A stretch of 64,000 nt of DNA from an uncultured Spirochaetota bacterium (GTDB lineage: Bacteria; Spirochaetota; Spirochaetia; SZUA-6; Fen-1364): NCBI GenBank assembly GCA_963734545.1, contig CAVTHO010000006.1, positions 352,001 to 416,000 on the forward strand. Direction: 5' to 3'. The translations under genes and the position numbers were made by a program. A model generated the notes under the pieces. It had not been told where the DNA came from, did no database searches, and saw only the letters and a list, made by a program, of their open reading frames with translations. Positions 29,702 through 49,252 of this stretch are shown here, piece after piece. Within the stretch, counting starts at the first letter, position 1; every line of letters starts with the position of its first letter.

Positions 29702-30324
29702 AACGGCAGCGAGATATTGAACCGCACGGCGAGCATGCGGACGACAAATGTCGCGGCCACACCCAGGGGAATGGAGATCGCAGACGGCATTCCGAGCCAG
29801 CTGAAGAGCATGTACAGGGTGCAGCCGGCAAGACTGCAGGTGGCGTAGAGCTGGGACTTGCTGAAAACGGTCGGGATCTTGTTGCCCACGATGTCGCGGA
29901 TGACCCCGCCAAAACAGCCTGTGATGACTCCCATGAGGATCGCGATGAAATAGAGGTTCGGATATACCTGCAGCGAGTAGATTGATCCCAGAACGCTGAA
30001 AAGGCCGAGACCGAGCGCGTCGAAGATCGTGACGACAAGAACGAGCGTCTTGCTCTTGCGATCCCTGATCTGCCTCAGAATGGCCACGGATATGATTGAC
30101 AGGACGAGGATTGCGACGCCGTAAGGCCAGTTCTGAATCCAGAAAAGCGGATGGCGCTGCAGAAAGAGATCACGAACAGTTCCTCCGCCGAACGCGGTGA
30201 TCATGGCAAGAGAGTAGACGCCGACGACATCCATCTTCAGGCGCCGGGCCTCGAATATGCCTGTCAGGCTGAATGCCAGCACGCCGAGGACCTCGATCAG
30301 CTTGAGAAAAGTATCGTAGGTCAT
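29698..30324 (-). CDS. TRIC/UPF0126 membrane protein
   Basis: TAFGGGTVRD and TGCFGGVIRD repeats, DALGLG. Confidence 0.92.
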   Translation of the reverse strand: MTYDTFLKLIEVLGVLAFSLTGIFEARRLKMDVVGVYSLAMITAFGGGTVRDLFLQRHPLFWIQNWPYGVAILVLSIISVAILRQIRDRKSKTLVLVVTIFDALGLGLFSVLGSIYSLQVYPNLYFIAILMGVITGCFGGVIRDIVGNKIPTVFSKSQLYATCSLAGCTLYMLFSWLGMPSAISIPLGVAATFVVRMLAVRFNISLPL

Positions 30325-30327
30325 GAA

Positions 30328-33300
30328 TCAGCGGGCGCCCGCTGTGCCCCGCGCACGCCGTGCCTGGATGGCCGCGAAGATGGCCTCGCAGGTGGCAGGG
30401 GAGGGGAGAGGCACCTCGCCGCCCGGGGGACCAAAGGCGCTGACCGCATCGCGAATGGCTTCCCGGACCGAGATCGCGAGCATGAGGGGCGGCTCTCCTA
30501 CCGCCTTGCTGCCGTGAATCGTTCCTGCCTGCGCTGCCTCGGGCAAAAGGGTGACATGAAACTCCAGGGGCGCATCGCTGATGGCCGGGATCTGGTACGT
30601 GCTTGCGCTGTGCGTCTGCAGCCGGCCGTCCCTGTCCCAGAGCAGCTCCTCCCTGGTGAGCCAGCCCATGCCCTGCACGAAGCCGCCCTCGATCTGGCCC
30701 CGATCCACCCCGGGATTCAGCGAGTCTCCCACGTCGTGCACGATGTCCACCCGCAGCACCCGGTGCATGCCGGTGTAGCCGTCCACTTCCACCTCGCTCA
30801 CGGCCGCGCCGCATGCGAAATAATAGAAGGGACGCCCTTCCGACTTTTCCCAGTTCCAGCCGATGCCCGGAGTGGCGTAGAAGCCGGTCGAGGAAAGGCT
30901 GATCCGCTGGAGGTAGGCCTCCTGGCAGACGTCCACGAACGGAATGCGCGCCGGCGCGTTCGCGGCGCCGGCGGCCTGCCGCGCGAACCCGTCCGCAAAG
31001 GTCACCTCGGAAGCATTGACGGCCGCGCCGATCTTCTTCGACAGCAGGCCGGCCGCGACGGGCGCCAGCCGTTCGCGGAGCGTGACGCAGGCGTTCTTCA
31101 CCGCCCATCCGTTCATGTCAGCGCCGGATGAGGCAGCGGTTGCCGAGGTGTTGGGCACCTTGTCCGTGCTGGTCGGCATCATGCGCACGCTCTCTGCCCG
31201 CACTCCGAGCTCCCGGACAGCCACGCCGAGCACCTTGGTGTGCAGCCCCTGTCCCATCTCCGTGCCGCCGTGATTCACCTGCACGGAGCCGTCCCGGTAG
31301 ATCAGGACGAGCGCGCCGGCCTGGTTGAACGTTGCGAGCGTGAATGAAATGCCGAACTTCTCCGACGTCACGGCAAGACCGCGTTTTATCCCTGTGTGCC
31401 GCGCGTTCCAGGCGTCGATCTCGCGCCGGCGCGCCTCGAATCCCGCCTGTGCCTGGACCCGGCGCCACATGTCCGGGAGCCGGTTGTCGCCGATCTCCTG
31501 GCCGAAGTGCGTGGTGTTCGTCTCTCCGCTGCCGTGGTAGAGATTGCGGGCGCGCACCGCCTCGGGGGCAAGGCCGAGCCTGCGCGCCACCCGGTCCATG
31601 ATCTCCTCCATGACGAGCATTGCCTGCGGCCCGCCGAATCCGCGGAAGGCAGTGTGCGACGTGGTGTTCGTTTTCGCCACACGTCCGGTGAAATGGACGG
31701 CGGGGATGTAGTAGGCGTTGTCCAGGTGGAAGAGACCGCGGTCCAGGATGGGCTGCGAGAGATCGAGGGACCAGCCTCCGTCGGAGACCAGCTCCACGCG
31801 CGCGGCCAGGAGCCTGCCTTCTGCGTCGTAGCCCACCGCGAACTTCGAGTGGAACGGGTGGCGCTTGCCGGTGATCATCATGTCGAGGTCCCGGTCGAGC
31901 TGGATCCGGACCGGCTGGCGTGTCTTGTGAGCGGCAAGAGCCACGAGCGAGGCAAACGTGTTGCCCTGCACCTCCTTGCCGCCGAACGCTCCGCCCATGC
32001 GCGGGGACTGGACCACCACCTTGTTCCGCGGCAGGTCGAGCAGCTCCGCCACGATAATCTGAATCTCAGAGGGGTGCTGCGTGGAGGAGTTGATGAATAT
32101 AGTGCCGGACTCGCCCATCTCCGCCATGGCCGCGTGCGTCTCCAGGTAGAAATGCTCCTGGCTGCCGGAGAAGAACTCCCCTTCGAGCCGATGCGGAGAT
32201 TCGGCCAGGGCCTTGTCGCAGTCTCCCCGCTTCAATACATGGGGATCCGTGTGGTAGCTGTTCTGGGAGACCGCCTCCTTGATGCCGAGGATCGGGGGCA
32301 GCGGCTCGTAGTCCACTTCCACGAGCGCCGCTGCCGCGCGGCACTCCTTGACGGAATTGCCGACCACGAGCGCGATGAGCTGGCCGTGATACAGCACCTC
32401 CTGGGAGGCGAGGAGCGGCTCGTCGTGCCGCGCGGTGCCCACGTTGTTGTGCCCGGGGATGTCTTCAGCGAGCAGGACCGCGACGACACCGGGAGCGCCC
32501 CGCGCCTTGTCCGCGTCGCGCCGCGTGATGCGCGCCCGGGTCCGGGACGCGCAGACCGGCCAGGCTTCGAGCATGGGCCGGCGCTGGGACGTATCGTCCA
32601 CGTACAGGGCGCCGCCCGTCACGTGCCCCCGGGCGCTCTCGTGCGCGAGCGCGCGTGAAGCGTCCGTCACGGGAAACTTTTCCCCGAGCGCAAAGTCCAG
32701 CGCGCCGTCCTGTGCCGAGCTCTGCTCGCCGCTCACGAACTTTTCCCACAGGCTGACGATGAGCCCTTTCCGATACGCGGCGCTTCCCCGGGCGTCATCG
32801 ATGGGCTGAAACTCGGCCTGGAGCGCCTTGCTCACCGCCTCCCGCGCGTCCTCGAGGCGCCGGCCTTCCGCCGCGGCCTCTGCCCGGCGGGCACGGTGCG
32901 GCGTGAGCGCCACTCCGCCGTAGGCAATACGCGCCGCGCGCACTATGCCGCCTGCGTCCACGTCGGCCCTGAATGCGCCTGCCACGATGCTGATGTCCAG
33001 CTCGCGGCGCTTCGACACCTTGAGGAAGTCCACCTTCCGCGTGAGCCCCGAGGCAGGACCGGCGCGCGGAACCACGATTGCCAGGATTATTTCACCGGGC
33101 CGCAGCGCCGTCTTGCGATACCCCAGGAAGAAGTCCGCAAGGGGCAGCGTGCGCCGGGCCCTGGAGGTTCCGAGCACCAGCGTGGCATCCAGCGTGAGGA
33201 GCACCGGCGCGCTGTCTCCGATTGGAGATGCCGTGGCGATATTGCCGCCCATGGTCGCGCGATTGCGGATGCCGCGGGAGGCGAACACACGCAGCATCTT

Positions 33301-34176
33301 TGCCAGTGACGGGTATTCGGCCGCAACCGTCTCTTCCACCGCGGTGAGCGTGGCCGCGCTGCCGATGCGCCACGCGGAGTTGGTGCGCGTGATGCGCGTG
33401 AGCTCCGGCACGCCCTCGGTGGAGATGAGGAGCGGAAAGGAAGCGAGCTTTTTGTTGATGTCGACGCCGATCTCCGTGGCGCCTGCAACGAGACGCGCCT
33501 TCGGATGCTTTTCCAGCAGGGAGAAAAGCTCGGGCAGCGAGGTGGGGCGGAAGAACTGTTCCCCTTGCGCCGCATAGGAGAGCGCCCGCGCCGGCTCCAC
33601 CGGCGCGTCGAGCCGGCGTCTGAATGGATCCTCCACGCCGACGGAATTGTCCCTCTGCGCGAGCGCTCCCAGCGCGGCGTCCCGTATGGGCCGGTAGCCC
33701 GTGCAGCGGCAGAGGTTGCCGCTGAGCTGATCACTGAGCTGCCACGGGTCCCGACAGTCGTCCCGGTAGTATGCCTCGAACAGTGATACGACAAAGCCCG
33801 GCGTGCAGTACCCGCACTGGGAGCCGTACTGCTCCACCATGTGCGCCTGCACGGGGTGCAGCGTCTGCCCGGCAGCAAGACCTTCCACCGTCACGATCTC
33901 CCGGCCTGCGAACATGGGAAGCAGGGCGATGCAGCTGTTGAAGGCACGATAGGTCGGCGCGCCCGCGGCGTTCCGGTCCACGAGCGCCACGGTGCAGGCG
34001 CCGCAGTCCCCCTCCGCGCAGCCGCACTTGGTGCCGGTGTAGCCGTGTGTGCGCAGGTAGTCCAGCAGGGTGGTCGTCGGCGCCGCGTCCTGCACGAGAA
34101 CGGGCAGTCCGTTGATGATCATTGTGAAGCTGCCGGCGGCCGGGTGCGGTTTCACGTGAGGTTCCCTTTTCATCAT
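30328..34176 (-). CDS. xdhAB: Xanthine dehydrogenase, single-chain fusion of 2Fe-2S, FAD and molybdopterin domains
   Basis: GTKCGCAEGDCGAC, QCGYCTPG, NLCRCTGY, GGNIATASPIGD, HESARGHVTG, FGGKE, AFRGFG, AVGEPP in one 1282-aa frame. Confidence 0.95.
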   Translation of the reverse strand: MMKREPHVKPHPAAGSFTMIINGLPVLVQDAAPTTTLLDYLRTHGYTGTKCGCAEGDCGACTVALVDRNAAGAPTYRAFNSCIALLPMFAGREIVTVEGLAAGQTLHPVQAHMVEQYGSQCGYCTPGFVVSLFEAYYRDDCRDPWQLSDQLSGNLCRCTGYRPIRDAALGALAQRDNSVGVEDPFRRRLDAPVEPARALSYAAQGEQFFRPTSLPELFSLLEKHPKARLVAGATEIGVDINKKLASFPLLISTEGVPELTRITRTNSAWRIGSAATLTAVEETVAAEYPSLAKMLRVFASRGIRNRATMGGNIATASPIGDSAPVLLTLDATLVLGTSRARRTLPLADFFLGYRKTALRPGEIILAIVVPRAGPASGLTRKVDFLKVSKRRELDISIVAGAFRADVDAGGIVRAARIAYGGVALTPHRARRAEAAAEGRRLEDAREAVSKALQAEFQPIDDARGSAAYRKGLIVSLWEKFVSGEQSSAQDGALDFALGEKFPVTDASRALAHESARGHVTGGALYVDDTSQRRPMLEAWPVCASRTRARITRRDADKARGAPGVVAVLLAEDIPGHNNVGTARHDEPLLASQEVLYHGQLIALVVGNSVKECRAAAALVEVDYEPLPPILGIKEAVSQNSYHTDPHVLKRGDCDKALAESPHRLEGEFFSGSQEHFYLETHAAMAEMGESGTIFINSSTQHPSEIQIIVAELLDLPRNKVVVQSPRMGGAFGGKEVQGNTFASLVALAAHKTRQPVRIQLDRDLDMMITGKRHPFHSKFAVGYDAEGRLLAARVELVSDGGWSLDLSQPILDRGLFHLDNAYYIPAVHFTGRVAKTNTTSHTAFRGFGGPQAMLVMEEIMDRVARRLGLAPEAVRARNLYHGSGETNTTHFGQEIGDNRLPDMWRRVQAQAGFEARRREIDAWNARHTGIKRGLAVTSEKFGISFTLATFNQAGALVLIYRDGSVQVNHGGTEMGQGLHTKVLGVAVRELGVRAESVRMMPTSTDKVPNTSATAASSGADMNGWAVKNACVTLRERLAPVAAGLLSKKIGAAVNASEVTFADGFARQAAGAANAPARIPFVDVCQEAYLQRISLSSTGFYATPGIGWNWEKSEGRPFYYFACGAAVSEVEVDGYTGMHRVLRVDIVHDVGDSLNPGVDRGQIEGGFVQGMGWLTREELLWDRDGRLQTHSASTYQIPAISDAPLEFHVTLLPEAAQAGTIHGSKAVGEPPLMLAISVREAIRDAVSAFGPPGGEVPLPSPATCEAIFAAIQARRARGTAGAR

Positions 34177-34178
34177 CG

Positions 34179-34994
34179 TCAGAGCCGGAATATCTGGAGG
34201 AGTTTTTTCTCCGTCTCTCCTTCTATCGTGGCCTCCACCTCGACGTACTGCTCCAGGCCGGAGCCGTTGAGCTTCTCCTTGAGAAGCTCGTCGAGCTGGA
34301 AGACGCCTGCGGAATTATTCATTTCCACATTGATGTGGATGGGCTTCTCGTCTCCGCTCAGGATCTCGATCTTCTCGATCGAGGCCGCGGAGAGAGAATG
34401 TATGTTGACTGCCCCTGCCTCGAAGGGGATGCGCGATCTGCCCTTGGTCATGTCCAGGGCGTCCGCAACCCGCACGATTCCCGCCTCCACGGTCATGGGC
34501 CTTCCCTCGCTGCGGTGGGAGATGATGGCGTGCAGGGTCTCGGACCGGACGATCGTGCGCGGTCCGACCTCGTACAGGCCGTCGAGGAGCCGGTCAATGA
34601 TGGGCTGCGCCACGAAGAGGCTGTACAGCTCGTGATCCGCACGCTGGATGGACATGCCCAGGTCGTGCAGGAGCGAGCCCAGCACCACCACGACCTCGGC
34701 GTCGTCATTCGCCATGCTGTAGTCCTTCACGATGCTGGGCACGATGCCGCGCTCCATGAGCTGCCGGAGCATTTTCAGCGCGATGTTCGACACGATCTGG
34801 AAATGGATGGGACCGTGATCCGTCATTCCCAGCCGGGTCACCGCGTTGACGTTCATGGCGGTCCAGAGAGCATAGAGCTCTTCATCCGCGTTGACCCGCT
34901 CGATGACCTTCTGCAGTGTCGGATTGTGCCTGACGGGAAGGCGGATCTCGACGCGCTGCCCGGACTCCTGTGCGTCTCCGCTGTTCTGCTCCAT
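34179..34994 (-). CDS. HD-domain phosphohydrolase
   Basis: DHGPIH, LLHDLG, SH, VADALD. Confidence 0.85.
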   Translation of the reverse strand: MEQNSGDAQESGQRVEIRLPVRHNPTLQKVIERVNADEELYALWTAMNVNAVTRLGMTDHGPIHFQIVSNIALKMLRQLMERGIVPSIVKDYSMANDDAEVVVVLGSLLHDLGMSIQRADHELYSLFVAQPIIDRLLDGLYEVGPRTIVRSETLHAIISHRSEGRPMTVEAGIVRVADALDMTKGRSRIPFEAGAVNIHSLSAASIEKIEILSGDEKPIHINVEMNNSAGVFQLDELLKEKLNGSGLEQYVEVEATIEGETEKKLLQIFRL

Positions 34995-38000: not shown

Positions 38001-39101
38001 GATGTCCTCTTCCGAGTCGTTCCAGAGCAGGGCGATACTGGCCCTGTACCCGGCCTGGCGGAGAAAAGAGACGAGCAGGGTCGCCTTGTCCTTGCAGTCT
38101 CCATAGCCGCGATCCAGTATTTCCCGGGGCGTGTAGGGCACGATGGAATTCGAGCCCAGCTCGAGACCCACGTAGCGGACGCGCGTGTTGATCCAGCGCA
38201 TGAGCCCGATGGAGGTCTTCACCGGATTACCGGCAACGACCGCTTCTTTCGGGACATCCACTCTCTGCGCGCTGATTTTCTGGTCGACCAGCCGCGAGTA
38301 TCCGGCGGCAAGCGCGTTCCATGAAGGGGCAGTCGTGAAGCACACGTACGGCCCGGAGGGAACGTCCCGGGGGAACCACTTCTCGGTCTTGTCGGCCGGG
38401 AATTGCCGGGTACGCAGGTATTCCCACCGTGTGGTTCCCGCCGCAACGCTGATCTGGAAAGAGGGAACGTCCTGCCCCAGGCTTTTCATCTTCACCTTGA
38501 CGGAGCCGGGGGTCTCGATGACCAGCCGGTTGACGAGCGTCGGGATACTGGAATAGAAGTTCCAGCTCCGGATGAATCCGCCGCCCTCCAGTATCGGCCG
38601 TGAGATGTTCCGTACCTCTTCCTCGACGACGGAGCCGATGTGCACCTGGGGAAAGGGGGCCTCGAGGGTCTTTCTGTCGGAATAGATATTGTCGCTGTCT
38701 CCGGTGGATTTCCCTTCCGCCAGGGTTTTTGGATCCAGGTACCAATCCCTGCCGTCGGCGTTTATCACCCGCACACGGATGTCCGGCCTGTCCTGATGCC
38801 AGGGGCTCCAGGAAACCTGGACGCCCCCCCAGCCTTTCAGCCCGTCCTCGGTGAGGATCTGGTACACGAGCTGGGTGGTCTGCTCGAGGGTGCCGTTCTC
38901 CCTGAAGCGGAATCGCCCCTGCCTGTAGAGGATGACGACATCGTTTTCACCCGGGTAGCTGCTGTTCTTTGCGGCCGCAATGACTTCCGCCGCATTCACC
39001 TGGAACAATCCCTTGCTCCAGAGGGCGTCCGCCGGTTCCTGGGCGCCGAGGCAGACCGCGGCCAGAAAAAAGAGGCACGTGGCAATCGGGATTTTCACCA
39101 T
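35046..39101 (-). CDS. Secreted DUF3857 / transglutaminase-like / TPR protein
   Basis: Signal peptide MVKIPIATCLFFLAAVCLGA, GDCKDKA, FNHAI, WLDPT triad, C-terminal TPR-like helices. Confidence 0.85.
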   Translation of the reverse strand: MVKIPIATCLFFLAAVCLGAQEPADALWSKGLFQVNAAEVIAAAKNSSYPGENDVVILYRQGRFRFRENGTLEQTTQLVYQILTEDGLKGWGGVQVSWSPWHQDRPDIRVRVINADGRDWYLDPKTLAEGKSTGDSDNIYSDRKTLEAPFPQVHIGSVVEEEVRNISRPILEGGGFIRSWNFYSSIPTLVNRLVIETPGSVKVKMKSLGQDVPSFQISVAAGTTRWEYLRTRQFPADKTEKWFPRDVPSGPYVCFTTAPSWNALAAGYSRLVDQKISAQRVDVPKEAVVAGNPVKTSIGLMRWINTRVRYVGLELGSNSIVPYTPREILDRGYGDCKDKATLLVSFLRQAGYRASIALLWNDSEEDILPDMPGMDIFNHAIVYVDGPQPLWLDPTSDFSRDERLPYWDQERWALPARPEATGLIKTPVYPAAYQDTTQVNDYFLQDSGNCSVTETTTYGGGLDLYQRSTHAFGDPAEIKKDLESYAERYYGQKKLESFEYSDAHDLDTPFALTLRVNDTPIGATYAEYAEVAIKTDELFSWLPNVLLDKKAQPRRQDYRMNMTFIVHWENRIHPPSGFIPRGLPDPVQKDLGAVSYRSRAERLPDGTVVVRMTIETTKARLGPSEFDATRKALIDYRDALGTVKIILDHEAEQLYAAGDYLNAFKKFRELIAREPAKPMHEIRLSRALLKSGLGDEAAFAARRAVDLAPADSEAWTNLAWTLQHDGIGQRFGLGYDREAALAAYRKSLELAPDVWYARADYAILLEYDKNGIRYGNKADLAVSAAQYDLVKDSLKDHNLDLNPVVDLWYLGRFSDVQSMAAGLANADDRETYQLAARSAAGGTGAGVKAMNPQLSREKRQDYLARAAALLATIGKYAESSELYRMAARGSANAVNLDYQADLMASTRHFELDNGAPKDPTALANFYYRGLVAADGADFSLLKPGLTAGLYEILMQKSQGLNLKSEWASLANVVRNQATTMESLIDIILSHCVYDIKGTDSTGYHLVMRSTLAQNATLNTFFIVREGGALKVAALFGVPASVPVALRGLCARQDWASAATWLDWIRSDVENAHDKDLDGFKDFWPGAGTRGPADIQPAVDFLSAMFARQNGDIEPAWKRVSATKGAARTDLLTAIIGGSRNTLDWAGMLSAAGELVELDPGKDENFAVYIDALYKTHNWDRMEMLLNERIKASAQRDVVMSMLLSLSIAKRDSAKIQSLLQTPGLRLSAYDYNSLAWLDLFQPALSDQALEYARRAVTMSNSQDRAILQTMATLYAQNGRYEDARKLMQKCLELSGESTPRNEDWYVFGRIAEGYGFIQSARQAYAKVEKPGNREPNSTWELAQRRLTALGN

Positions 39102-39138
39102 GGATCCATTGTAGCACGGGGGCAAAATCGCGCAAATA

Positions 39139-40506
39139 TCAGCGGGATGAATCCGGCCGCAGAAATCTTCCCGACGGCTCCCCCACCACTGATCCGTCCC
39201 GGGCAACCGTGCGTCCGCGTACCAGCGTGCGCCGGACCGCCCCCTTCAGCGTGCGGCCGATATACGGGCTCAGGGCGTGCCGGTACAGGAGCTCGCTGTC
39301 CTGCAGAACGGACGCGCGTGACAGATCCACGAGCGCGAGGTCGGCGTCGGCGCCGACACGGATTCCGCCCTTGCCTGGCAGCCTGAACCGGTCCGCCACG
39401 TTCGAGGAGAGCAGCCCGGCGATCAGGGACGGAGGCAGGCCGAGTGTCAGCAGGACCCGGAGCGTCGTCTGGATCCCGCTGATCCCGCCCCAGGCTGCGA
39501 AAAAGTCCGGGGACGCGCCGCCGTTCGCGGTGGATTTGTTTTTCAGCTCCGGCGACGAGGGGGAATGATCCGAGCCGATCGTATCCACCCTGCCCGCGGC
39601 CACTTCGGCAAGGAGTTTTTCGCGCTCGTCGCTGCTGCGAAGCGGAGGAGAGCATTTCGCCGCCGCGCCCAGCCGCTCGACGTCTTCCTCTGACAGGAGC
39701 AGGTAGTGGGGGCAGGTCTCACAGGTCGCATCGCACTGTCCCGTGTCCGCGGCCTGCCTCACGAGCTCCACTCCGCGCGACGAGCTGGTGTGCACGACGT
39801 GCAGCGCGCACCCCGTCTCCTCCGCGAAGAGAAGGGCCCGGGATATGGCCTCGGCTTCAGCGATGACCGGTCGGGAGTCGAGATAGTCCCGCACGGACGT
39901 GCGGCCTTCCGACCGCGCGATCCCGGCGCGCGCGCGTGTCATTCCCTCGTTCTCCGCGTGCACCGCCACCGGCAGTCCCAGGCGCGCCGCGATCCGCATG
40001 CCCCGGTAAAGAGACTCGTCGTCACAGGCGCGGAAATCCTGGATGCCGCTGGAGGACATGAACGCCTTGAACCCGACCACACCGCACTCCGCCAGGGCTT
40101 CGAGCTGGTCGAGGTTGTCGGGGGTCAGCCCTCCCCACAGGGCAAAATCCGTTCGTGACGCGGCCCGGCAGGCGGCGAGCTTCAGCTCGAAGGAGGGAGC
40201 ATCGAGGGTGGGCGGCGAGGAGTTGAGCGGCATGTCGATGAAGCAGGTGCCGCCGCCTGCCGCGAGCGCCGCGGACCCTGTCGCGATGCCCTCCCAGTCC
40301 GTGCGGCCGGGCTCATTGAAATGGACATGGGCGTCGATCACGCCGGGGAAAGCGTGCAGACCGCGCGCGTCCATCGTCTCCTTCGCGCCTTCTGAGATCT
40401 CGGGGGCGAGGGCGGCGATTCTTCCCTCCCGTATGCCGATCCAGAGAGGAACCGGGCCCGAGGCGCCCACGACGAGCGCATCGCGGATCACGAGGTCGAG
40501 CGCCAC
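39139..40506 (-). CDS. allB: Allantoinase
   Basis: DAHVHFNEPGRTDWEG, DMPLNSSP, FKAF, VHAEN, ETCPHYL, SDHSP, WGGISG. Confidence 0.93.
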   Translation of the reverse strand: MALDLVIRDALVVGASGPVPLWIGIREGRIAALAPEISEGAKETMDARGLHAFPGVIDAHVHFNEPGRTDWEGIATGSAALAAGGGTCFIDMPLNSSPPTLDAPSFELKLAACRAASRTDFALWGGLTPDNLDQLEALAECGVVGFKAFMSSSGIQDFRACDDESLYRGMRIAARLGLPVAVHAENEGMTRARAGIARSEGRTSVRDYLDSRPVIAEAEAISRALLFAEETGCALHVVHTSSSRGVELVRQAADTGQCDATCETCPHYLLLSEEDVERLGAAAKCSPPLRSSDEREKLLAEVAAGRVDTIGSDHSPSSPELKNKSTANGGASPDFFAAWGGISGIQTTLRVLLTLGLPPSLIAGLLSSNVADRFRLPGKGGIRVGADADLALVDLSRASVLQDSELLYRHALSPYIGRTLKGAVRRTLVRGRTVARDGSVVGEPSGRFLRPDSSR

Positions 40507-40510
40507 TGCT

Positions 40511-40861
40511 TCAGCTTCCTCTATAGGTCGCGTACGACCAGGGAGAGACCAGCAGGGGGACGTGGTATTTCCCTCCCGGCTCGCTGACGATGAAGACAAC
40601 CGGCACGAGATCCAGGAACCTTCCCGCGTCAGGGTGACCGCGGCGCATGAAATAGGCCCCCACGTGGAACACGAGCTGGTAGGTCCCCGGGGACAGCGCG
40701 GGCCCTTCCAGCAGCGGGGCGTCCGTGCGTCCGTCCGCGTTCGCGACCAGCGTCTTGAGCAGGACCGCGGCCTCCGCGGTGACGCGCTCCAGGTCGATGC
40801 GCATGCCGGCCGCCGGTATGCCGCTCGCCGTGTCCAGGACATGCGTGCTGAGTCTGCCCAT
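40511..40861 (-). CDS. uraH: 5-hydroxyisourate hydrolase
   Basis: LSTHVLD, YHVPLL, C-terminal YRGS. Confidence 0.96.
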
Positions 40862-40864
40862 TGC

Positions 40865-41710
40865 TCACTCCCTTGCGACGGTCCCTTTGATGAGGCCATA
40901 AGGCTCGCTCGTGGCCGTGAAGATCTCGTTCTCGTTCGTCATCCCGAATGGCTGGAGGTTGACCAGGAGCCGATGCTGGTTGGGCATCGTGAAGCTGACG
41001 GAGCTTATCTCGGGAATACGCGCGAGCAGCGCTTCCCCCATTGCGTACAGGGTCTGCTGGACGCTCAGGCTGTCATGCGTGGCGAATGCCTCCAGGATCG
41101 TCTCTCGCGCCGTTTCGAAAACCGCGTTGAAGTCTGCCGGGCGCGCGCCATAGTCCCACGTGGCGTCGACGATGGTGGCGAAGATCCGGTCGGTGGTCTC
41201 CGGCAGCGTCGTGTACCTGTCCTTCAGGAACCCGGCGAATCGCGATCTCGTCGTCTTGATCACATCCAGTCCGGCAAGCCCGGCCCGGATGAGCGTGGCG
41301 CTTCCGCGCTTTCCGCGCACAAAGGCCGTGCGGACTGCGGATCCTTCTTTCTGGAACGCGTGCGCGTGCGGCGTGCCGTCCACCTCGATGCGCGACCACA
41401 GGGTCTGCTCCATGGAGATCTCGACCCAGTCCACGTGGCCGAAGCTTTCCAGGAAGTGGGACGCGAGGATCCGGCCGAACTCCTCCGCGGAATCGAAATC
41501 CGTGGCCTTTGCCAGCGCATACACCGTGTTCTTCATGGTGTCCGTCGGAATGCACGAAGAATTGTCGCCGTCGGTGTAAATTCGTTCGAAGGCGCCGCCC
41601 AGCGTGATCTGGACCGTGAGCTCGAAGAGGCTGTGCGTCTCCCCCTCGCGGACCACCTTGGTCAACCTCACCCTGCTCTTGCCGTAGCTGTTCTCCGTGA
41701 GCCGCGCCAC
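40865..41710 (-). CDS. pucL: Urate oxidase (uricase)
   Basis: YGKSRV, PTDTMKNT, KTTRS.F..F.KD.YTTL, SVQ, PN.H, PYG.I. Confidence 0.95.
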   Translation of the reverse strand: MARLTENSYGKSRVRLTKVVREGETHSLFELTVQITLGGAFERIYTDGDNSSCIPTDTMKNTVYALAKATDFDSAEEFGRILASHFLESFGHVDWVEISMEQTLWSRIEVDGTPHAHAFQKEGSAVRTAFVRGKRGSATLIRAGLAGLDVIKTTRSRFAGFLKDRYTTLPETTDRIFATIVDATWDYGARPADFNAVFETARETILEAFATHDSLSVQQTLYAMGEALLARIPEISSVSFTMPNQHRLLVNLQPFGMTNENEIFTATSEPYGLIKGTVARE

Positions 41711-41713: not shown

Positions 41714-42235
41714 TCAGGTCTCCGCTACCGCATCCCGCAGCCGCAGCCGGGCAATCTTCCCGATCTCTGCAAGGGCCGTGGCGATTTCCTGCTCCCGCGT
41801 GTGAGCCAGGCGGGCGGGGAATGCCGCGAGGATCGCCTCTTTCCTGTTTTCCCGCGCGCAGATGACAAACGGCATTTCGAACTTCTCCCTGTACTCCCGG
41901 TTGTAGCGATCGAACAGATCGATGTCGATGTCGGAGAGGCTGCCCAGGCCGGCGGCTGCCTGCTCCGCTGCGGAATCCCGGGAGAGTTTTCCCTCCCGGG
42001 CCAGCCGGCCCACCAGGTCCGGGTGCGCGGAGATGAGCGCAAGCTGCTCCTCCCGTGTCGCCTTCCGCACGGTGGCCACAAGCTCCTCGTGGAGGGCCGC
42101 CAGCGTCGGAAAGGGCCGGCGCGGCCACGTCCGCGCGGCGATCCAGGGCGAGTGCTCGAACAGCGGCCCGCAGACAGCCACGAAACCGGCCTCGTCCCGG
42201 GCATTGAGGTCCGCCAGGGACGCTTTCACCTGCAT
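41714..42235 (-). CDS. uraD: OHCU decarboxylase
   Basis: FEHSPWIA, AHPDL, S..EQ..AGL, Y.EKF..PFVIC, EI.KIARLRL. Confidence 0.95.
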   Translation of the reverse strand: MQVKASLADLNARDEAGFVAVCGPLFEHSPWIAARTWPRRPFPTLAALHEELVATVRKATREEQLALISAHPDLVGRLAREGKLSRDSAAEQAAAGLGSLSDIDIDLFDRYNREYREKFEMPFVICARENRKEAILAAFPARLAHTREQEIATALAEIGKIARLRLRDAVAET

Positions 42236-43467
42236 ACCGCCTCCGCGACGATGCGCGCCGCGCACGCAATGTCGTCGATCCGGCTGAACTCGCCCGGGTT
42301 ATGGCTTATGCCGCCGCGGCTGGCCACGAAGAGCATGGCGGCAGGGAGCAGGGGAGCCAGTATCGCGGTATCGTGAAGGGCGCCGCTCGCTGTTTCCGGC
42401 AGCTCCAGCTCGAGACGCCAGGCAGCCTCCTGCAGGCGCTCGCACACTCCGGGGTCGAGCGGGACAGCCGGCAGGTCTTCCGTGCACGAGAGCTCGAGCG
42501 TGAGCCCCCGTGAGCGCGCGATTTCCTGCACGAGCTTCCGCACCTGCAGGTCGCCGTGTGCCAGTCCCTCGTTCGATCTTGCGCGAAAGTCGATGGTGAA
42601 GGCGACCCGGCCGGGGATCACGTTCACCGCGTTGGGCTGCACGTCCAGCCGGCCCACGGTGACAACCGTGTGCCCTTCGGTCTTGTCCTGGGCCCGGCCC
42701 AGGCCTTCCAGGGCAGTCACCACTTGCGCGGCCCCTGCCAGCGCGTCACGCCTGTCCACCATGGCGGTGGCACCCGCGTGATTCGCCTCCCCGGTGAGCG
42801 CGCACGAGTACTGGCGGCGCCCGGCGATGGCCGTCACCACTGCCACCGGTATTCCGGCGTTCCAGAGCGCGGGCCCCTGCTCCACGTGAGTCTCGATCAG
42901 CCCGTGGTAGGCAGCCGGATCGAGACGCTCCGCGTCCAGCCTCTTCGGGTCCACGCCGTGCGCCGCGCCTGCCGTGAGGTAGTCCCTGCCCTCGCGGTTG
43001 CGAAGCGTGCGGAGCTGATCGGCATTGGTCAGGCCGGCCCACGCGCGGCTGCCCAGCATGCCGAGATCGAACGTGGTCCCTTCTTCCTCTGCAAAAACGA
43101 TCAGCTCCATCGGCGCGTCCGGCGCGGCGCGGAGGATCTCCAGCGCCACCACCACTCCCGTCACTCCGTCGAACCTGCCGCCGGTGGGCACCGAGTCCAC
43201 GTGAGACCCGCACAGCCATGCCTTCTCCTGCCATCCGAGCCCCGCGGGCCGCGCATGCAGGTTGCCTGCCGCGTCGATGCGCACGACGCATCCGGCTTTC
43301 TGCGCTTCCTCCGCGACGTAGTCCCGGGCCCGGCGCCACGAGGGCGAGAATGTCGGACGGCTGAAACCGACCTGCGGGTCTGCCTCGGAGAATGCGGCGA
43401 TCTGCTCGATGTCCCGGGCCAGCCGATGGCCCGCCACCTGGATGCCGCTCACCCGGGAGGGCTTCAC
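42226..43467 (-). CDS. Allantoate amidohydrolase-like M20 Zn hydrolase
   Basis: GSHVDSV, DGVTG, EEEG, HVEQGP, NHAG, NVIPG, SGALHD, GISH. Purine cluster context. Confidence 0.88.
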   Translation of the reverse strand: MKPSRVSGIQVAGHRLARDIEQIAAFSEADPQVGFSRPTFSPSWRRARDYVAEEAQKAGCVVRIDAAGNLHARPAGLGWQEKAWLCGSHVDSVPTGGRFDGVTGVVVALEILRAAPDAPMELIVFAEEEGTTFDLGMLGSRAWAGLTNADQLRTLRNREGRDYLTAGAAHGVDPKRLDAERLDPAAYHGLIETHVEQGPALWNAGIPVAVVTAIAGRRQYSCALTGEANHAGATAMVDRRDALAGAAQVVTALEGLGRAQDKTEGHTVVTVGRLDVQPNAVNVIPGRVAFTIDFRARSNEGLAHGDLQVRKLVQEIARSRGLTLELSCTEDLPAVPLDPGVCERLQEAAWRLELELPETASGALHDTAILAPLLPAAMLFVASRGGISHNPGEFSRIDDIACAARIVAEAVCR

Positions 43468-44454
43468 TTTCCGAAATCCTTCCGCCACGCCGCCCCTGTC
43501 TTTTCGAACGCGCTCTCGGCGGCCGTGCGCCGCAGCCGGTGAAGCTGGGGGGTGCCCAGCTCCCACTCCTGCATCCAGTCGCGCGCAAAGGCCCCCTGCT
43601 CCGTTTCCTTGAAAATCTGGCGGACAGCATCCTCATTGATCACGCGCGGCCCGCGCGTGCGCACGGCGAACTCGCAGGTACGGCTGCAGCGGGTAGTGAG
43701 GTAGTTCTCGACTCCGTTTTCGTCCATCACGTCCAGCACGCTTCTGATGGAGCGCACTGCTTTTGCATATGCAAAGCTCGGCGGATAGCCGTTGTCCACC
43801 ATCACCTGGAAGCAGAGCCGCATGAGCTGGATTGCCCCGCCGTAGAGGATCTGCTCCTCGAAGTTGTCCCCCTCTGTTTCGTGCTGGAAGGAAAGCTCCA
43901 CCACGCCTGCCCTCGTGGAGCCCACTGCCTTGGCAATGGCAAGAGCGATCTCTCTGGCGCTGCCCGGTGGCGTCGTGCTCGACGCTCACGCAGCCGTAGA
44001 CCCCTTCCCCCTTCTTGTACTTTTCCCGCACGAGCGCGCCGGGGGCATTGGGGACGAACAACACCGTGTTGACGGTCTCCGGCGGACGGATGGCGCCGTA
44101 GAGCACGTTGAAGCCGTGACAGAAGCAGAGCGTCTGGCCCGGCCGCAGGTGCGGGGCGATCTCTTTCCTGTAGACGGACGGCTGCGCGGGATCGGCCAGC
44201 TCGATCAGGAGAATGTCCCCTTTTTTTGTCGCCTCCGAGACGCTCATCACGGGAAACCCGTCCGCCTGCGCCTGGCCGCGGGAAGGACTCTCCTCCGCCG
44301 GCCGGGACCCGACGATCACGGTGCAGCCGCTGTCCCGGGCGTTCGCGGCCTGCGCTTTGCCCTGGATGCCGTACCCGATGACGGCGATTGTCCGGCCCTT
44401 GAGAATCGACATGTCCACGTCGGCATCGCGGTAGATCTTCTCGGTGTTTTCCAT
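43464..44454 (-). CDS. Ketol-acid reductoisomerase (IlvC)-like NAD(P) oxidoreductase with altered active site (one frameshift near 43965)
   Basis: IAVIGYGIQG.AQA.N.RDSG, HGFN, G.TRAGV, ETEGDNFEEQ. The canonical AYFECLHE reads AYAKAVRS. Confidence 0.85.
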
Positions 44455-44463: not shown

Positions 44464-45218
44464 TCACAGGGCGATCTCTCGATTGACGTTCTTATAATAG
44501 ATGTATCTGGACGCGAACAGGGCCCGTGGCATAGTAGCTCTGCGGACAGAAGGGGCCCATCCAGATGAAGTCGGTGGCTTCGACCTCCATCCAGGTGTCA
44601 TCGAGGAAGTACGTGCCTTTGCCTTGCAGCACGTACAACCCGTGCTCCATGACGTGCGTCTCCGTGATTGGCAGGCTGTGTCCCACGTCGAATGTGAAGA
44701 TATTCATGGCCATGTCGAATGCGTTGTCATCCGGGATAAGTACCTGCAGGAGCGCGCCTGGGTCTTCGTAGTACACCTGGCCTTTGGCATTCTTCTCGTT
44801 TCCCACCACCGCGGAGAACATGGGGAACGCCCGTTGCCGGCTCGTAACGCTTGCGCAGCATCAGCAGAGAAGTCTGCGCGCTGGCAGCGGCGCTGAAACT
44901 TTTGTCCGGTGGAATGAGCGCGTAGCCGCCGCTCACCAGGGCATGGCTCTTCCCGTCGATGGTGAGGCCCAGGGCACCGGAGAGCACGTAAATGAAGAAC
45001 TCGATCTGTCCGTCCGCAGGATGCGCTCCGGCCTGGCCAGGCGCCAGGTCCAGCAGGTATTCCGCGAACCCCGCCCCCAGCGCCGGCCCGGCGAGCACGC
45101 GTACCTGCGCCTGCGGCCACTCGGGCAGCCGCGAGTAGGGGATCCCCTCGAGGGGAAGAAGGGCATAGCGGGGTTTCACGCGCGTCCGGCTGTGCAGGAG
45201 CTGACTCTGAGTTCTCAT
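44464..45218 (-). CDS. allE: (S)-ureidoglycine aminohydrolase, bicupin (two frameshifts)
   Basis: FDMAMNIF, ETHVMEHG, FIWMGPFCPQ, terminal YIYYKNVNR. Confidence 0.9.
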
Positions 45219-45311: not shown

Positions 45312-46474
45312 CTACCGCGCTGAAATGTAGCTTATCGGAGCCCGCTCGATCTTCTCCACCGGCAGCACGTCCACCAGCTCGTACTTCCGCGTGCCCAGTC
45401 CCAGCTTCTCCCCGTACTCCACCACCAGGTAGGGGTCCTTGTAGGGGCCGTGCAGCCAGCGGAACGGGTGCCCCTCGCGCGTGTGGACTTCCATCGAGGT
45501 GGGGATGTTCTCCTCGATCAGGCGCAGTTCGCCGATTGCGTCCAGCACGGCCTGCTCCACGGCAACGATATCGTCCGAGCCGAAGATTCCCGCGTCCGGC
45601 AGGATGGGCATGCTGGTGAACCCGAAGCAGTCGCAGACCGGCGTCATCTGGTTGGCAAGGATGATGTGCACGGCCTTGCCCGGCGCAAAGGTGCCCAGAG
45701 AGAGGCTCGTGCTGATTGCCAGGCCTCCTGGAAGGCATGGAAGTTCACCTTGTCGATCTTCAGGCTGCCGGGGGGCGCCACTTTCAGGCAGCGCCCGCAC
45801 TGGTTGCACTCCTCGGGGTGCAGGTGAAGCTCCCGGGGGTTGTCCTTGTCCTCCACGAGCGCCGCGTGCGGACAGGAGGCGAGGACGCTTTTTCTGGCGG
45901 CCTCGTCGGGGCACTTGTCGGCGAACCAGTAGCGATCGAACTGCATTGCGTCGTGCATGGCGCTGCGCGTAGGACCGGCCATGCAGCCCAGGGCCAGGTT
46001 CTTGAACACCCCGCCGTAGCCGCAGCTCGGATGCCCCTTTGCATGCGCCAGGTTGACCAGGAATGTTGCGTCCTGGATCAGTCCGGCGACCTGCCACTTC
46101 TTGATGTTCTTGAAGGGGCGCTCATGCTCGTAGAAATACTTGTCATCCGGCCCGGCCGCGGCGTACACGGGGCAGCCCAGGGTCTCAGATGAGTAGCCGC
46201 GCTCCTCGGCGCCCTTGGCGTCCCAGGTCACATCGGCGATGTACGGCCGGCCGCCGCCGTCCTTGATGGCCTGCACGACCTTGCGCACGAAGACCGGGTG
46301 CACGGTCGAATAGCCGATCTTGTTTCCCGTGTGCATCTTGATCACCACAGTCTCGTCCTTGACGCGCTCGCGCAGCTTGAGGCGCTCGAGGATCAGATCG
46401 AGCTTGGCCGGCAGGGTTTCCCTGGCCTCGAGCCGGGCCTGACGGGGGGAGCCGAAATACACGGTGCTGGACAT
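45312..46474 (-). CDS. DUF362 domain 4Fe-4S protein (one frameshift near 45722)
   Basis: IKMHTG, HAKGH, GGVFKNLALGC, CNQCGRC, PVCDC, S.D.VA.E.A. Confidence 0.85.
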
Positions 46475-46574
46475 TTGCAGACCTCCCATTGGCATAGGGC
46501 AGTAGCTTATCATAGATGCGTTCTCGTGATAATGGGCGAATTCTGGTCGCCCAAACATCTTTGCGAGTTGTTTT

Positions 46575-46669: not shown

Positions 46670-47713
46670 ATGATTGCAATTGCAGTTATTGCGCCCGGAC
46701 ACGTCGAACCGGTCGATATCCCGAAACCCAAGCCTGCGCCGTACGAAGCTTTGATAAAAAACAAGGCAGCCTACATCTGCAACGCCACCGACAGGAAGCT
46801 CGTGGCTGGTCATTTTCCCGGCATCGGAATCGAGAAGTATCCCCTCCTGCTCGGTCATGAGAGCGTCGGCGTCGTGGAAGAGGTGGGCTCCCGGGTGAAG
46901 AGCTTCAAGCCCGGTGACCGGGTGATCGGAGGGCTTCTCCTTTCGCCGACCAGCCCGCGCTTTTCTTCCGGCTGGGGCGGGAATTGCGAGTACGTGATTG
47001 CCACGGATCACGCGGCCATGCTCGCCGACGGCGTGGCGGACAAGGCGCACGGCTGGGACGAAATCTTCCAGATCATGAAAAAGCTTCCCGATGACATCCC
47101 GCTGGAGGCAGCCGCGCTCCTGTGCACGTGGCGCGAGGTGTACGCGGGCTTCAGCGACTTCCAGTTGAAGAAGGGCGACGACATACTCATTTTCGGCGCC
47201 GGGCCGGTCGGGCTCAGCTTCTGCCGCATGGCGAAGCTCCTCGGCCTGGGATGGGTCGGAGTGGTGGACCCCCTTCCCCAGAAGCGGGATCGGGCAAAGG
47301 CAATCGGGGCGGATGAGACATTCGCTCCTGATTCGGCCGAGCTGGCGGACCTGACCCGTCGCCGGGGCGCTCCGCTGGACGCGGTCATCGACGCGGTGGG
47401 AAGCGAACGCATCATCAACGCCGGCCTGCCGCTCATCAGGATGGCCGGCTCGCTGTGCGTGTACGGGGTGGTGGGGAGCGCGCAGATCACCGTTGCCAAG
47501 GACACGGGGCCCTACAACTTCAACCTGTTCATGCACCAGTGGCCGACACGGCCGGCGGAGGCGGCGGCACAGGAGCCGCTGATCGAGTGGATCAGGGCGG
47601 GCAAGCTCTCCCACAAGGATTTCCTGACAGCGGAGTACCCGGTGCGGGAGGCTGCGAAGGCCCTGCATGCAACCGAAGAGCCGGACGCGATCAAGACCCT
47701 GCTTCGTTTCTGA
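46670..47713 (+). CDS. MDR family dehydrogenase lacking the structural-Zn lobe
   Basis: ICNATD, LGHE, GAGPVG, DAVG. No four-Cys cluster. Confidence 0.88.
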   Translation: MIAIAVIAPGHVEPVDIPKPKPAPYEALIKNKAAYICNATDRKLVAGHFPGIGIEKYPLLLGHESVGVVEEVGSRVKSFKPGDRVIGGLLLSPTSPRFSSGWGGNCEYVIATDHAAMLADGVADKAHGWDEIFQIMKKLPDDIPLEAAALLCTWREVYAGFSDFQLKKGDDILIFGAGPVGLSFCRMAKLLGLGWVGVVDPLPQKRDRAKAIGADETFAPDSAELADLTRRRGAPLDAVIDAVGSERIINAGLPLIRMAGSLCVYGVVGSAQITVAKDTGPYNFNLFMHQWPTRPAEAAAQEPLIEWIRAGKLSHKDFLTAEYPVREAAKALHATEEPDAIKTLLRF

Positions 47714-47727
47714 GGAGCCGTAGTGAC

Positions 47728-49252
47728 ATGAACCGCTACATACTCGCGCACGATCTGGGGACATCGGGGAACAAGGCGACCCTTTTCACGACCGAGGGGA
47801 AGCTGGTGGGAAGCGTCACTGTTCCGTATGACACGCACTACTTCAACACCAACTGGGCCGAGCAGGAGCCCGAGGATTGGTGGAAAGCCGTGTGCTCCTC
47901 CACGCAATCCCTCGTGCGGGACGTGGATGCGCGCGAGATCGCCGTCATTGCATTCAGCGGCCAGATGATGGGCTGCCTCTGCGTGGACAGGGACGGACGG
48001 GCCCTGCGGCCCGCCATCCTGTACAGCGACCAGCGCGCGGTGAAGGAATGCGATTCGATCCTCCGGCAGATCGACGCACAAGAGTTCTACAAGACGACCG
48101 GCCATCGCGCCAGCGCCTCCTACTCGGTGGAGAAGCTCATGTGGGTGAAGGACCACGAGCCGCAGGTATATGCAAAGACATTCAAGATGCTCCACGCCAA
48201 GGACTACCTGAACTTCCGCCTCACCGGGGTCATGGCCACGGAGTATTCCGACGCGTCAGGCACGAACGTGCTCGACCTGAACAGCCTGCGCTGGTCGGAA
48301 AAAATCGTGCGCATCACCGGCATCGACGGCGAGAAGCTGCCCCCGCTCAAGGCATCCACCGACGTGGTCGGCACGCTCACGTCGGCCGCCGCCAGGGCGC
48401 TGGGGCTGCCCGCCGGAATTCCCGTGGTCGCCGGAGGAGGGGACGGGGTCTGCGCGGGGGTGGGCGTCGGATCGGTGAAACCGGGGATCACGTACAACTA
48501 CCTGGGTTCCTCATCGTGGATCGCGACCACGACAAAACAGCCGATTTACGACGAGCAAGATGCGCACCTTTGTCTGGGCGCATGCCGTTCCGGGGTACGT
48601 GCATCCCTGCGGCACCATGCAGACGGCGGGGGGCGCGTACGCGTGGCTGAAGAACGAGATCTGCACGATGGAAAAGGCAGCCGCGTCGGAGAGCGGCGGA
48701 AATCCCTACGAGCTCATCAACAGGGAGATAGAGAAATCTCCACCAGGAGCCAACGGCATCATTTTCCTTCCGTACCTGCTGGGGGAGCGCACGCCGCGAT
48801 GGAATCCGGATGCCAAGGGCGCCCTGATGGGCCTCACCCTGGAACATACGCGGGCGGACGTCCTGCGGGCCGTCATGGAAGGCGTGACGGTGAACCTGAG
48901 CATCATCCTGGACATTTTCCGGGAACAGATCCCCATCAGAGAGATCACCGTGATCGGCGGCGGAGCCAAGGGTGACGTGTGGCGAAGGATCATGGCGGAT
49001 GTCTACCAGGCGGATATCCTGCGGCCCAACTACCTCGAGGAAGCCACCTCCATGGGCGCCGCGATCATCGGCGGTGTCGGATGCGGGGTTTTCAAGGACT
49101 TCGACGTGGCAGACAGATTCATCACGATCACCGACCGGACGCGCCCGGACGCCGGCCTGCAGTCCGTCTACCAGGCAACAAAAGACCTGCTGAATGACAG
49201 CTACGATGCACTCGCCCCCCTCTTTCCGAGATACGGGAAGAGGACACGATAA
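47728..49252 (+). CDS. FGGY carbohydrate kinase, xylulokinase-like (one frameshift near 48558)
   Basis: HDLGTSGNK, SGQM, D.RA, SDASGT, GGGDG, PYLLGERTP, IGGGAK. Confidence 0.92.

Follow-up and report, generated by a model that had tools for sequence, protein, structure and literature searches.

A ketol-acid reductoisomerase paralogue in a bacterial purine-catabolic operon is a candidate ureide-pathway oxidoreductase

The DNA analysed here is a stretch of 64,000 nucleotides (the window) from an uncultured Spirochaetota bacterium (contig CAVTHO010000006.1, positions 352,001 to 416,000), and the gene in question encodes a homologue of class I ketol-acid reductoisomerase (KARI, IlvC) inside an operon for purine catabolism. 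Read 5′ to 3′ on the minus strand, the operon runs allE, KARI-like gene, M20 amidohydrolase gene, OHCU decarboxylase, urate oxidase, 5-hydroxyisourate (HIU) hydrolase and allantoinase, and xanthine dehydrogenase (XDH) comes later (Table 1). An earlier interpretation of this DNA, made without database searches (the sequence-only reading), had placed the gene between allE and the M20 amidohydrolase gene, with no other ilv genes nearby, in a cluster covering the pathway from xanthine to ureidoglycolate, and had proposed that its product performs the missing step. Profile searches bear out this arrangement: no ilv gene was seen among the profiled neighbours in the window, and the operon holds a gene for every step from xanthine to (S)-ureidoglycolate. 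The end of allE lies 9 nt before the ATG of the KARI-like gene, and a GTGA overlap with the M20 gene, also described earlier, fits the sequence, the stop codon TGA (43466-43464) overlapping a GTG (43467) in the reading frame of M20; the longest M20 open reading frame (ORF) begins ahead of this GTG, at 43566.

Both Pfam domains of class I KARI were recognised in the gene product. The four motifs that had been singled out as unusual, FVPNAPG, GDNFEEQ, AYAKAVRS and RCSRTCEFA, are all present in the window translation, and in the HMMER alignment of P0001, the nearest intact homologue by protein search (329 amino acids, 95% identical to the C-terminal half in the window), they stand opposite PKSPG, TDLFGEQ, AYFETCHE and VSNTAEYG of solved KARIs. 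Intact homologues have 326-329 amino acids. For an AF2 model of P0001 (pLDDT 95.6, pTM 0.90), the best folds were class I KARIs (4tsk, 7q03, 8ep7 and others), with TM scores of 0.75-0.80, a Foldseek probability of 1.00 and 35-44% identity in the alignments, ahead of the KARI-fold enzyme BurG. Intact members pass the TIGR00465 equivalog (288-297 bits against a cut-off of 226) and straddle the NF004017 cut-off of 336 (331-338 bits in the protein scan, 311-341 in genomes), where canonical copies of the same genomes score 389-558, and the public label of the homologues at NCBI and JGI is ketol-acid reductoisomerase.

In the sequence as given, a surplus base within or beside a coding-strand GGG run (43963-43965) splits the gene, and the window ORFs derived from this gene encode 273 and 153 amino acids. 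The sequence-only reading made no mention of this shift, and the span that it gave, 991 nt, is no multiple of three. The extra base stands in the window sequence, which might mean that the shift is real and the gene a pseudogene in this particular genome, but this is very unlikely: short-read contigs covering the site in four wetland metagenome runs all lack one base at 43963-43969 (X1 1/1, X2 1/1, X3 2/2, X4 1/1; these contigs are 88-99% alike and represent relatives, not the source strain's own reads), and the same assembly also has frameshifts in allE (twice), the DUF362 gene, an FGGY kinase, an Ldh_2 gene, carbamate kinase and the canonical ilvC, the last in three pieces. At allE, relatives in metagenome contigs likewise lack one base at 44515 and at 44821/44826. 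Because the related contigs lack the base and many other genes are split, we read the frameshift most likely as an assembly indel error, otherwise as a strain-private change, and not as biology. Single-base frameshifts are frequent in this assembly and gene calls on this genome are fragmented; the four wetland runs contain at most 39% of the sampled words, and no habitat claim is drawn from them.

Table 1. Features of the operon, split genes and further features of the window and its genome (positions are those of the window unless a contig of the genome, G000, is given)
Feature	Position	Strand	Evidence or remark
KARI-like (IlvC paralogue) gene	43464..44454	minus	Pfam KARI_N + KARI_C
N half of KARI-like gene	44454-43960 (165 codons)	minus	Pfam KARI_N 3.3e-49
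C half of KARI-like gene	43958-43464 (164 codons)	minus	Pfam KARI_C 3.1e-29
Single-base frameshift in KARI-like gene	43959..43965	minus	three-frame translation
allE, (S)-ureidoglycine aminohydrolase (bicupin), two frameshifts	44464..45218	minus	TIGR03214 140.7 + 95.8 bits, two pieces
M20 hydantoinase/carbamoylase-type amidohydrolase, presumed allantoate amidohydrolase	42226..43467	minus	NF006771 350 bits (cut-off 399); TIGR01879 320 bits (cut-off 204, passed)
OHCU decarboxylase	41714..42265	minus	PF09349 3.8e-47; TIGR03164 184 bits
Factor-independent urate oxidase	40865..41710	minus	TIGR03383 351 bits
5-Hydroxyisourate hydrolase	40511..40861	minus	TIGR02962 124 bits
Allantoinase (AllB type)	39139..40509	minus	TIGR03178 518 bits (cut-off 358, passed)
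Single-polypeptide xanthine dehydrogenase	30328..34314	minus	Pfam Fer2, Fer2_2, FAD_binding_5, CO_deh_flav_C, Ald_Xan_dh_C, MoCoBD_1, MoCoBD_2
DUF362 gene	45312-46558		split gene
FGGY kinase gene	47455-49252		split gene
Ldh_2 gene	7088-8126		split gene
Canonical ilvC	G000:C3:56945-57882		split gene, other contig
Carbamate kinase gene	G000:C4:539492-540422		split gene, other contig
DUF3857/transglutaminase-core/TPR protein	35046-39206		1386 amino acids
Gly_transporter-family membrane protein	29698-30327		PF03458
BcrAD_BadFG/DUF2229 protein	51762-55643		1293 amino acids
Separate catabolic cluster	5654-13702		

Active-site residues were compared between 118 full-length KARI-like sequences and 25 canonical ones from the representative search, the latter picked for PKxPG, so that their Lys in this motif is 25/25 by selection. 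This Lys, the catalytic K155 of E. coli KARI, is Asn136 in 117 of the 118 KARI-like sequences and Ser in the remaining one. With SaKARI numbering given first, Glu226 is replaced by Lys231, His229 by Arg234 and Glu230 by Ser235, each in 118/118, while the canonical set has Glu at the 226 position in 20/25 and at the 230 position in 22/25. Further fixed changes are Leu to Asn197, Gly to Glu199 and Lys to Arg237, and Arg258, Arg265 and Arg267 were gained. Kept in all 118 are GxGxxG, His113 (of HGF), Glu192, Asp196, Glu200, Ser257 and Thr259. Asp196 and Glu200 correspond to SaKARI Asp190 and Glu194, which according to PMC13753588 coordinate both Mg ions, Glu230 being a Mg(II) ligand as well. The lost Mg(II) ligands and Lys speak against alkyl migration, and the kept site-I carboxylates, His, Ser and nicotinamide site speak for a plain redox reaction of a 2-hydroxy or 2-oxo acid. 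Around a 2-residue insert, the cofactor loop keeps Arg51 in 118, Ser56 in 114, Ser58 in 115 and Arg59 in 95 of the 118 sequences, which, by the known rules for KARI cofactor specificity, suggests NADP(H).

The closest relative outside the family (P0122, 50% identity) is also non-canonical, with VPEAPG, AYLKVVNG and Lys at the Glu226 position; a search for its own relatives in genome contigs gave a single match of 27% identity over 78 residues, nothing usable. Many of the nearest 50%-cluster KARI representatives (P0122, P0129, P0152, P0157 and others) have E, N, H, S, T or another residue in place of the PKxPG Lys, and other non-canonical KARI subfamilies of unassigned role seem to exist.

Conservation of the gene context was determined in 80 loci, the best of 199 relatives found among GTDB species genomes by a pattern search with the C-terminal half. 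By record title these comprise 24 Spirochaetota, 49 Planctomycetota, 6 Verrucomicrobiota and 1 unlabelled locus. tblastn matched the KARI-like protein in 80 loci, AllE in 77, M20 in 75, OHCU decarboxylase in 66, HIU hydrolase and allantoinase in 62 each, uricase in 57 and XDH in 41, and the commonest order, AllE-KARI-M20-OHCU-uricase-HIUase-allantoinase(-XDH), is complete in 26 + 16 loci. Across the three phyla AllE lies upstream in 77/80 and M20 downstream in 75/80, with median gaps between tblastn matches of 77 and 33 nt; two of the three loci lacking AllE, and four of the five lacking M20, are cut by a contig end.

Neighbours were also clustered without prior choice of family, by all-against-all BLAST on GC3-filtered locus ORFs. 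The other recurrent neighbours are all purine-salvage or catabolic: a guanine-deaminase-like gene (29 loci), adenine deaminase (21), the XDH small subunit (20), XdhC (20) and pyrimidine-catabolic genes (5-7). Minor recurrent neighbours, which indicate no downstream step, are GGDEF, Amidohydro_3, ABC transporter parts, CN_hydrolase, PreA, dihydropyrimidinase, class III aminotransferase, sensor kinases, DUF1501 and SSF, and no AllA, AllD, carbamoyltransferase, glyoxylate or oxalate genes occurred among the clustered neighbour ORFs. A single-sequence search with M20 found only 4 close relatives, all on contigs with a KARI-like locus or in evident operon relatives, and says little on an occurrence of this M20 subfamily outside KARI-type operons.

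The presence of the KARI-like gene follows allE and not general genome content. In the window's order (92 genomes), identity to P0001 is bimodal, at least 81% or at most 42%, and the high class occurs in 12 genomes of one genus; the gene is in 12/12 AllE-positive and 0/80 AllE-negative genomes. In the planctomycete family of G015 (141 genomes), the gene was matched in 38 genomes (E <= 1e-120) and AllE in 43, and the five apparent AllE-only genomes resolve into two frameshifted copies (L020, L021), a third frameshifted copy (G445), one cut by a contig end (G369) and one true lack (G448), so that after recovery of four copies the gene is in 42/43 AllE-positive and 0/98 AllE-negative genomes. These counts, from related genomes that are not independent, are descriptions and not statistics. 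At phylum scale the gene is rare and patchy: in a 301-genome sample of G015's phylum it was found in G015 alone.

Every operon-bearing genome tested has another KARI. In the window's genome a canonical ilvC lies on another contig (TIGR00465, 207+182+23 bits), and a second KARI gene was found elsewhere in 24/24 other operon-bearing genomes, where it reaches 389-558 bits on NF004017 in 19, is broken up by frameshifts in 3 and is only weakly matched (142-145 bits) in 2; the weak matches lie in an open frame of ~520 amino acids and are read as the long (class II) form. The sequence-only reading would count as refuted if the gene were the only ilvC of its genome or if its homologues had no linkage to purine genes, and it named as checks the co-occurrence with allE, the anti-correlation with allA and allD and a canonical ilvC elsewhere in the genome. 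The 80 loci are linked to purine genes, co-occurrence with allE holds in both lineages, and the window's gene is not the only ilvC of its genome; for the known ureidoglycolate enzymes, see below. It is highly improbable that the gene encodes another ordinary KARI isozyme, serving branched-chain amino-acid or pantothenate synthesis and present in the operon by chance. Such an isozyme would account for scores above the TIGR00465 cut-off and at that of NF004017 and for the database label, but virtually all 118 members have other residues for the PKxPG Lys and for two Glu of the Mg(II) site, another ilvC was present in every genome tested, and the gene occurs only where allE does. We put the probability that the protein is a ureide-pathway enzyme rather than a branched-chain amino-acid KARI at about 85%.

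Known enzymes for the disposal of ureidoglycolate were then sought in the 24 operon-bearing genomes. AllD (TIGR03175) was above cut-off in 0/24, with no Ldh_2 match whatever in 12/24. Matches to the AllA family (PF04115) were weak (27-43 bits) and confined to 5/24 genomes, each of them a spirochaete by the label of its locus record, with no match close to the operon; the window's genome has three PF04115 matches of 29-33 bits on other contigs. Thus no AllD above cut-off and no convincing AllA is present in these genomes. The earlier statement that the cluster has no AllD stands for the operon, but an Ldh_2-family gene (AllD superfamily), overlooked in that reading, does lie in the window, 35 kb off; its score on the AllD profile is 184 bits (cut-off 496), and its best match is L-sulfolactate dehydrogenase (210 bits), likewise below cut-off. 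A second hydantoinase/carbamoylase-type M20 is missing in 12/24 genomes.

The one true lack of the KARI-like gene beside AllE is informative about its position. In G448 (Tepidisphaeraceae family; L093, G448:C466:1-8000), where the KARI-like gene is missing, uricase and XDH adjoin an M20-AllE-M20 arrangement; of the two M20s, one exceeds the cut-off of the allantoate amidohydrolase (AAH) equivalog (494 bits against 479), and the other scores 390 against a cut-off of 399. The second M20, in the slot of the KARI-like gene, is a putative ureidoglycolate amidohydrolase (UAH). Because the KARI-like gene is the sole operon gene with no role otherwise, and because G448 has a putative UAH instead, we place it at the ureidoglycolate step.

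Downstream metabolism was checked further in five genomes (the window's genome G000, two complete Alkalispirochaeta-labelled chromosomes, G015 and G013). Urease alpha was found in 0/5 and glyoxylate carboligase above cut-off in 0/5, malate synthase in 1/5, and carbamate kinase in 4/5, two of them near the cut-off. Allantoicase (PF03561) had no match in the five genomes, but neither had the control of that search, so that this absence carries no weight. Hence neither the urea route, a standard glyoxylate sink nor the E. coli-type oxalurate route is general in these genomes. The surroundings of carbamate kinase in G000 (AI-2E transporter, CBS, aminotransferase, TruD) and in G015 (XdhD-like molybdoenzyme, M20) gave no oxalurate-related lead. 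The latter locus (L096, G015:C1:2696000-2714000) has carbamate kinase between the XdhD-like molybdoenzyme and another M20 peptidase, an arrangement that resembles the ygeW-yqeA region of E. coli.

These results bear on a possible role as a reductase of glyoxylate (or of hydroxypyruvate or tartronate semialdehyde), in which ureidoglycolate would be cleaved by a bifunctional M20 enzyme or spontaneously, and glyoxylate would be reduced to glycolate with NADPH as a detoxification. KARIs have activity on hydroxypyruvate. The NADP(H)-type loop fits this role, glyoxylate has no standard sink where malate synthase is missing (4/5 genomes) and glyoxylate carboligase too (5/5), and KARIs promiscuously reduce small 2-oxo acids (PMC4353338). 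We nevertheless regard it as quite unlikely. A ureidoglycolate-cleaving enzyme was not found, AllA being absent or doubtful in 24/24 genomes and a second M20 absent in 12/24; in the examined stretch of the G448 operon, which has a putative UAH, no reductase is present, so that release of glyoxylate there does not require one as a companion (n = 1); an identity of 75-84% across phyla and the invariant AllE/M20 placement are unusual for a detoxifying side enzyme; and the many new Arg and Lys residues suggest a ligand larger and more oxygen-rich than glyoxylate.

The best explanation of these data is that the protein is a neofunctionalised class I KARI paralogue, probably no longer an acetolactate reductoisomerase, and would serve the ureide pathway (urate to allantoin to allantoate) as its own NAD(P)-dependent oxidoreductase. 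The proposal that the gene fills the missing step is thus supported, and the evidence at hand is compatible with ureidoglycolate oxidation as well as with glyoxylate or imine reduction. Our favoured but tentative version, which we hold at somewhat below even odds, is a dehydrogenase that converts (S)-ureidoglycolate to oxalurate. In this model, the KARI-like enzyme would act after AllE, in the slot that AllA, AllD or UAH occupies elsewhere, and would abstract a hydride from C2 of (S)-ureidoglycolate to give oxalurate (N-carbamoyl-oxamate), the reverse of the reductase half-reaction of KARI. The retained Asp/Glu metal site, Ser and His would serve the oxidation, whereas the second metal site, needed only for alkyl migration, would have been replaced by Lys231, Arg234 and Ser235; oxalurate could possibly be hydrolysed by the co-translated M20 enzyme. 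By Cahn-Ingold-Prelog analysis, C2 of (S)-ureidoglycolate should have the same spatial arrangement as that of the KARI product (2R)-2,3-dihydroxyisovalerate. Moreover, oxalurate is an N-substituted oxamate, which is the skeleton of the KARI inhibitors IpOHA and hydroxyoxamates (title of PDB 6bul; IpOHA in PMC13753588).

Several points weigh against this dehydrogenase model. The fate of oxalurate is not accounted for by the genes found: the OXTCase subunit AllG (PF06545) is in 2/5 of the genomes checked further and was not found in the window's genome (89% complete), no oxamate- or oxalate-handling gene is recurrent beside the operon in the related loci, and two of the four nitrogens stay in oxalurate unless M20 or another enzyme hydrolyses it. 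The conserved 2′-phosphate loop residues point to NADP(H), a cofactor more typical of reductases than of dehydrogenases in catabolism, and the KARIs characterised so far are all known as reductive enzymes. The non-independence of the genomes counted above also reduces the force of the co-distribution, and two loci are true exceptions to the gene order: L049 has no AllE match in 605 nt upstream, and L078 has no M20 match in 2.3 kb downstream.

Some of the same observations would fit a reductive route to glycine, in which NADPH reduces an N-acylimine (ureidoglycolate minus water, or ureidoglycine minus ammonia) to N-carbamoylglycine, which M20 then converts to glycine, CO2 and NH3; in a close variant, 2-iminoacetate is reduced to glycine. 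The KARI-like protein and the co-translated M20 enzyme, acting also as AAH, would then form a hitherto unrecognised reductive end of the ureide pathway that turns purine C4-C5-N7 into glycine, in a module laterally spread among Spirochaetota, Planctomycetota and Verrucomicrobiota. With such a route the operon would be self-sufficient, regaining the C2 unit and all four nitrogens while forming neither glyoxylate nor urea nor oxalate; the route agrees with the conserved NADP(H)-type loop, with the translational coupling of M20 to the KARI-like gene and with the lack of recurrent downstream oxalurate or glyoxylate genes in the related loci and the five genomes. The best solved relative of M20 is the N-carbamoyl-L-amino-acid hydrolase 3n5f (226 bits), ahead of AAH 1z2l (199) and UAH 4pxe (176), but these differences in score are small. 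As allantoate is itself an N-carbamoyl compound, one M20 enzyme could plausibly act twice. There is also chemical precedent on the KARI scaffold, which carries out the hydride-driven dehydroxylation of IpOHA (PMC13753588) and whose promiscuity has been linked to proline biosynthesis (PMC4353338), which we would read as P5C imine reduction. Against this, AllE would be partly redundant if the imine were derived from ureidoglycine. Nor is an enzyme that reduces ureidoglycolate, or its imine, known from purine catabolism. Both the route and the module that it implies are considered unlikely, and oxidation of (S)-ureidoglycolate is preferred.

The XDH is one polypeptide of 1328 amino acids (2Fe-2S, FAD, Mo-cofactor) with the domain order usual in eukaryotes, and the XDH small subunit is a separate ORF in many related loci. 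Between allantoinase and XDH lie the DUF3857/transglutaminase-core/TPR protein, found in 0/80 loci, and an HD-domain gene. The DUF362 protein, with a 4Fe-4S dicluster segment, is directly upstream of allE and was matched in 1/80 loci, so that its gene is probably outside the conserved module. The Gly_transporter-family membrane protein closes the operon and, at 2/80 loci, is too rare to weigh for a glycine-forming route. Taken together, DUF362, HD, Gly_transporter, Zn-ADH and FGGY were each matched in 1-2 loci, and DUF3857 and SGL in 0. Outside the operon, a separate catabolic cluster contains GntR, an RraA-like aldolase, the Ldh_2 gene, aldehyde:ferredoxin oxidoreductase (AFOR), SDR/cupin pieces, a creatininase-family amidohydrolase and a TRAP transporter, and the BcrAD_BadFG/DUF2229 protein, of the CoA-enzyme activase type, stands beside a GH88 glycosyl hydrolase.

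The history of the gene was followed by comparing paralogues in nine genomes, the ORF being chosen by alignment score in GC-rich loci. Identity between the operon copy and the canonical ilvC of one genome is 35-41%. In 23 between-phylum pairs, ilvC is 47-60% identical (median 56) and the KARI-like protein 75-84% (median 76); the Verrucomicrobiota-labelled copy shares 82-84% with Pirellulales copies, and Pirellulales and Tepidisphaerales copies share 72-80%. The KARI-like protein is the most conserved of the operon, with a median tblastn identity of 75-80% against 44-67% for the others. Since the between-phylum identity exceeds that of ilvC and the gene is confined to one genus of the spirochaete order, the data indicate that the operon has spread laterally, probably under strong constraint as well. 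A laterally spreading purine-catabolic operon has, in this tightly conserved and systematically mislabelled KARI subfamily, what is very probably its missing terminal oxidoreductase.

Bacterial purine catabolism is held to be well mapped, yet these wetland and soil lineages lack the known means of ureidoglycolate disposal (AllA, AllD and, in half of them, UAH). If the proposed role is right, the ureide pathway would gain a new enzyme, and possibly a new reaction, through the remodelling of a biosynthetic enzyme, and the case would illustrate how loss of one metal site turns a reductoisomerase into a plain oxidoreductase. The family passes the NCBI ilvC equivalog threshold, and metabolic reconstructions therefore count a branched-chain amino-acid enzyme that probably is none. 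A full-text literature search (supplements lay outside its scope) found no paper tying a KARI homologue to ureidoglycolate or purine catabolism, and a 2026 review of urate catabolic enzymes contains 0 occurrences of reductoisomerase, IlvC, oxalurate or ureidoglycolate dehydrogenase.

Compared with class I KARI (IlvC, EC 1.1.1.86), the protein has the same two Pfam domains and fold, the GxGxxG, the Arg/Ser phosphate loop, the His of HGF, the Asp/Glu of D-x-F-x-E-Q and the Ser of S-x-T. It differs in Asn for the PKxPG Lys, Lys and Ser for Glu226 and Glu230, Arg for His229, the extra Glu199, Arg258, Arg265 and Arg267 and the 2-residue insert in the cofactor loop, and its gene, unlike ilvC, belongs to a purine-catabolic operon and is accompanied by a separate ilvC. 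It is thus a KARI by fold and ancestry, yet it should probably not be filed as EC 1.1.1.86, because it fails in the Lys, in the Mg(II) glutamates and in being the branched-chain amino-acid copy.

With AllD, the (S)-ureidoglycolate dehydrogenase of the Ldh_2 family, it would share the proposed reaction and the position after AllE in the pathway. AllD uses NAD, whereas the cofactor loop of the KARI-like protein suggests NADP; moreover, the two have no sequence or fold relationship, and profile searches gave no Ldh_2 match on either half of the KARI-like protein, which could only be a non-homologous analogue. In E. coli, AllD is an alternative to AllA. UAH, an M20 paralogue of AAH, is comparable in its operon slot, as the candidate in G448 illustrates, but UAH works by hydrolysis, setting free glyoxylate and ammonia, whereas the KARI-like protein is a predicted nicotinamide-dependent oxidoreductase.

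Recruitment of the KARI fold to other reactions has precedents in the cyclopropanol synthase BurG and the D-apionate oxidoisomerase ApnO, of which ApnO is catabolic and oxidative; according to PMC13753588, BurG retains the majority of the KARI active-site residues, and ApnO has only four in common with KARI, those around metal site I. BurG structures were matched by the KARI-like protein at 168-169 bits by sequence and at E ~3e-30 by fold. In comparison with both enzymes, the KARI-like family is much closer to canonical KARI in sequence, but it has given up the Mg(II) ligands and the Lys.

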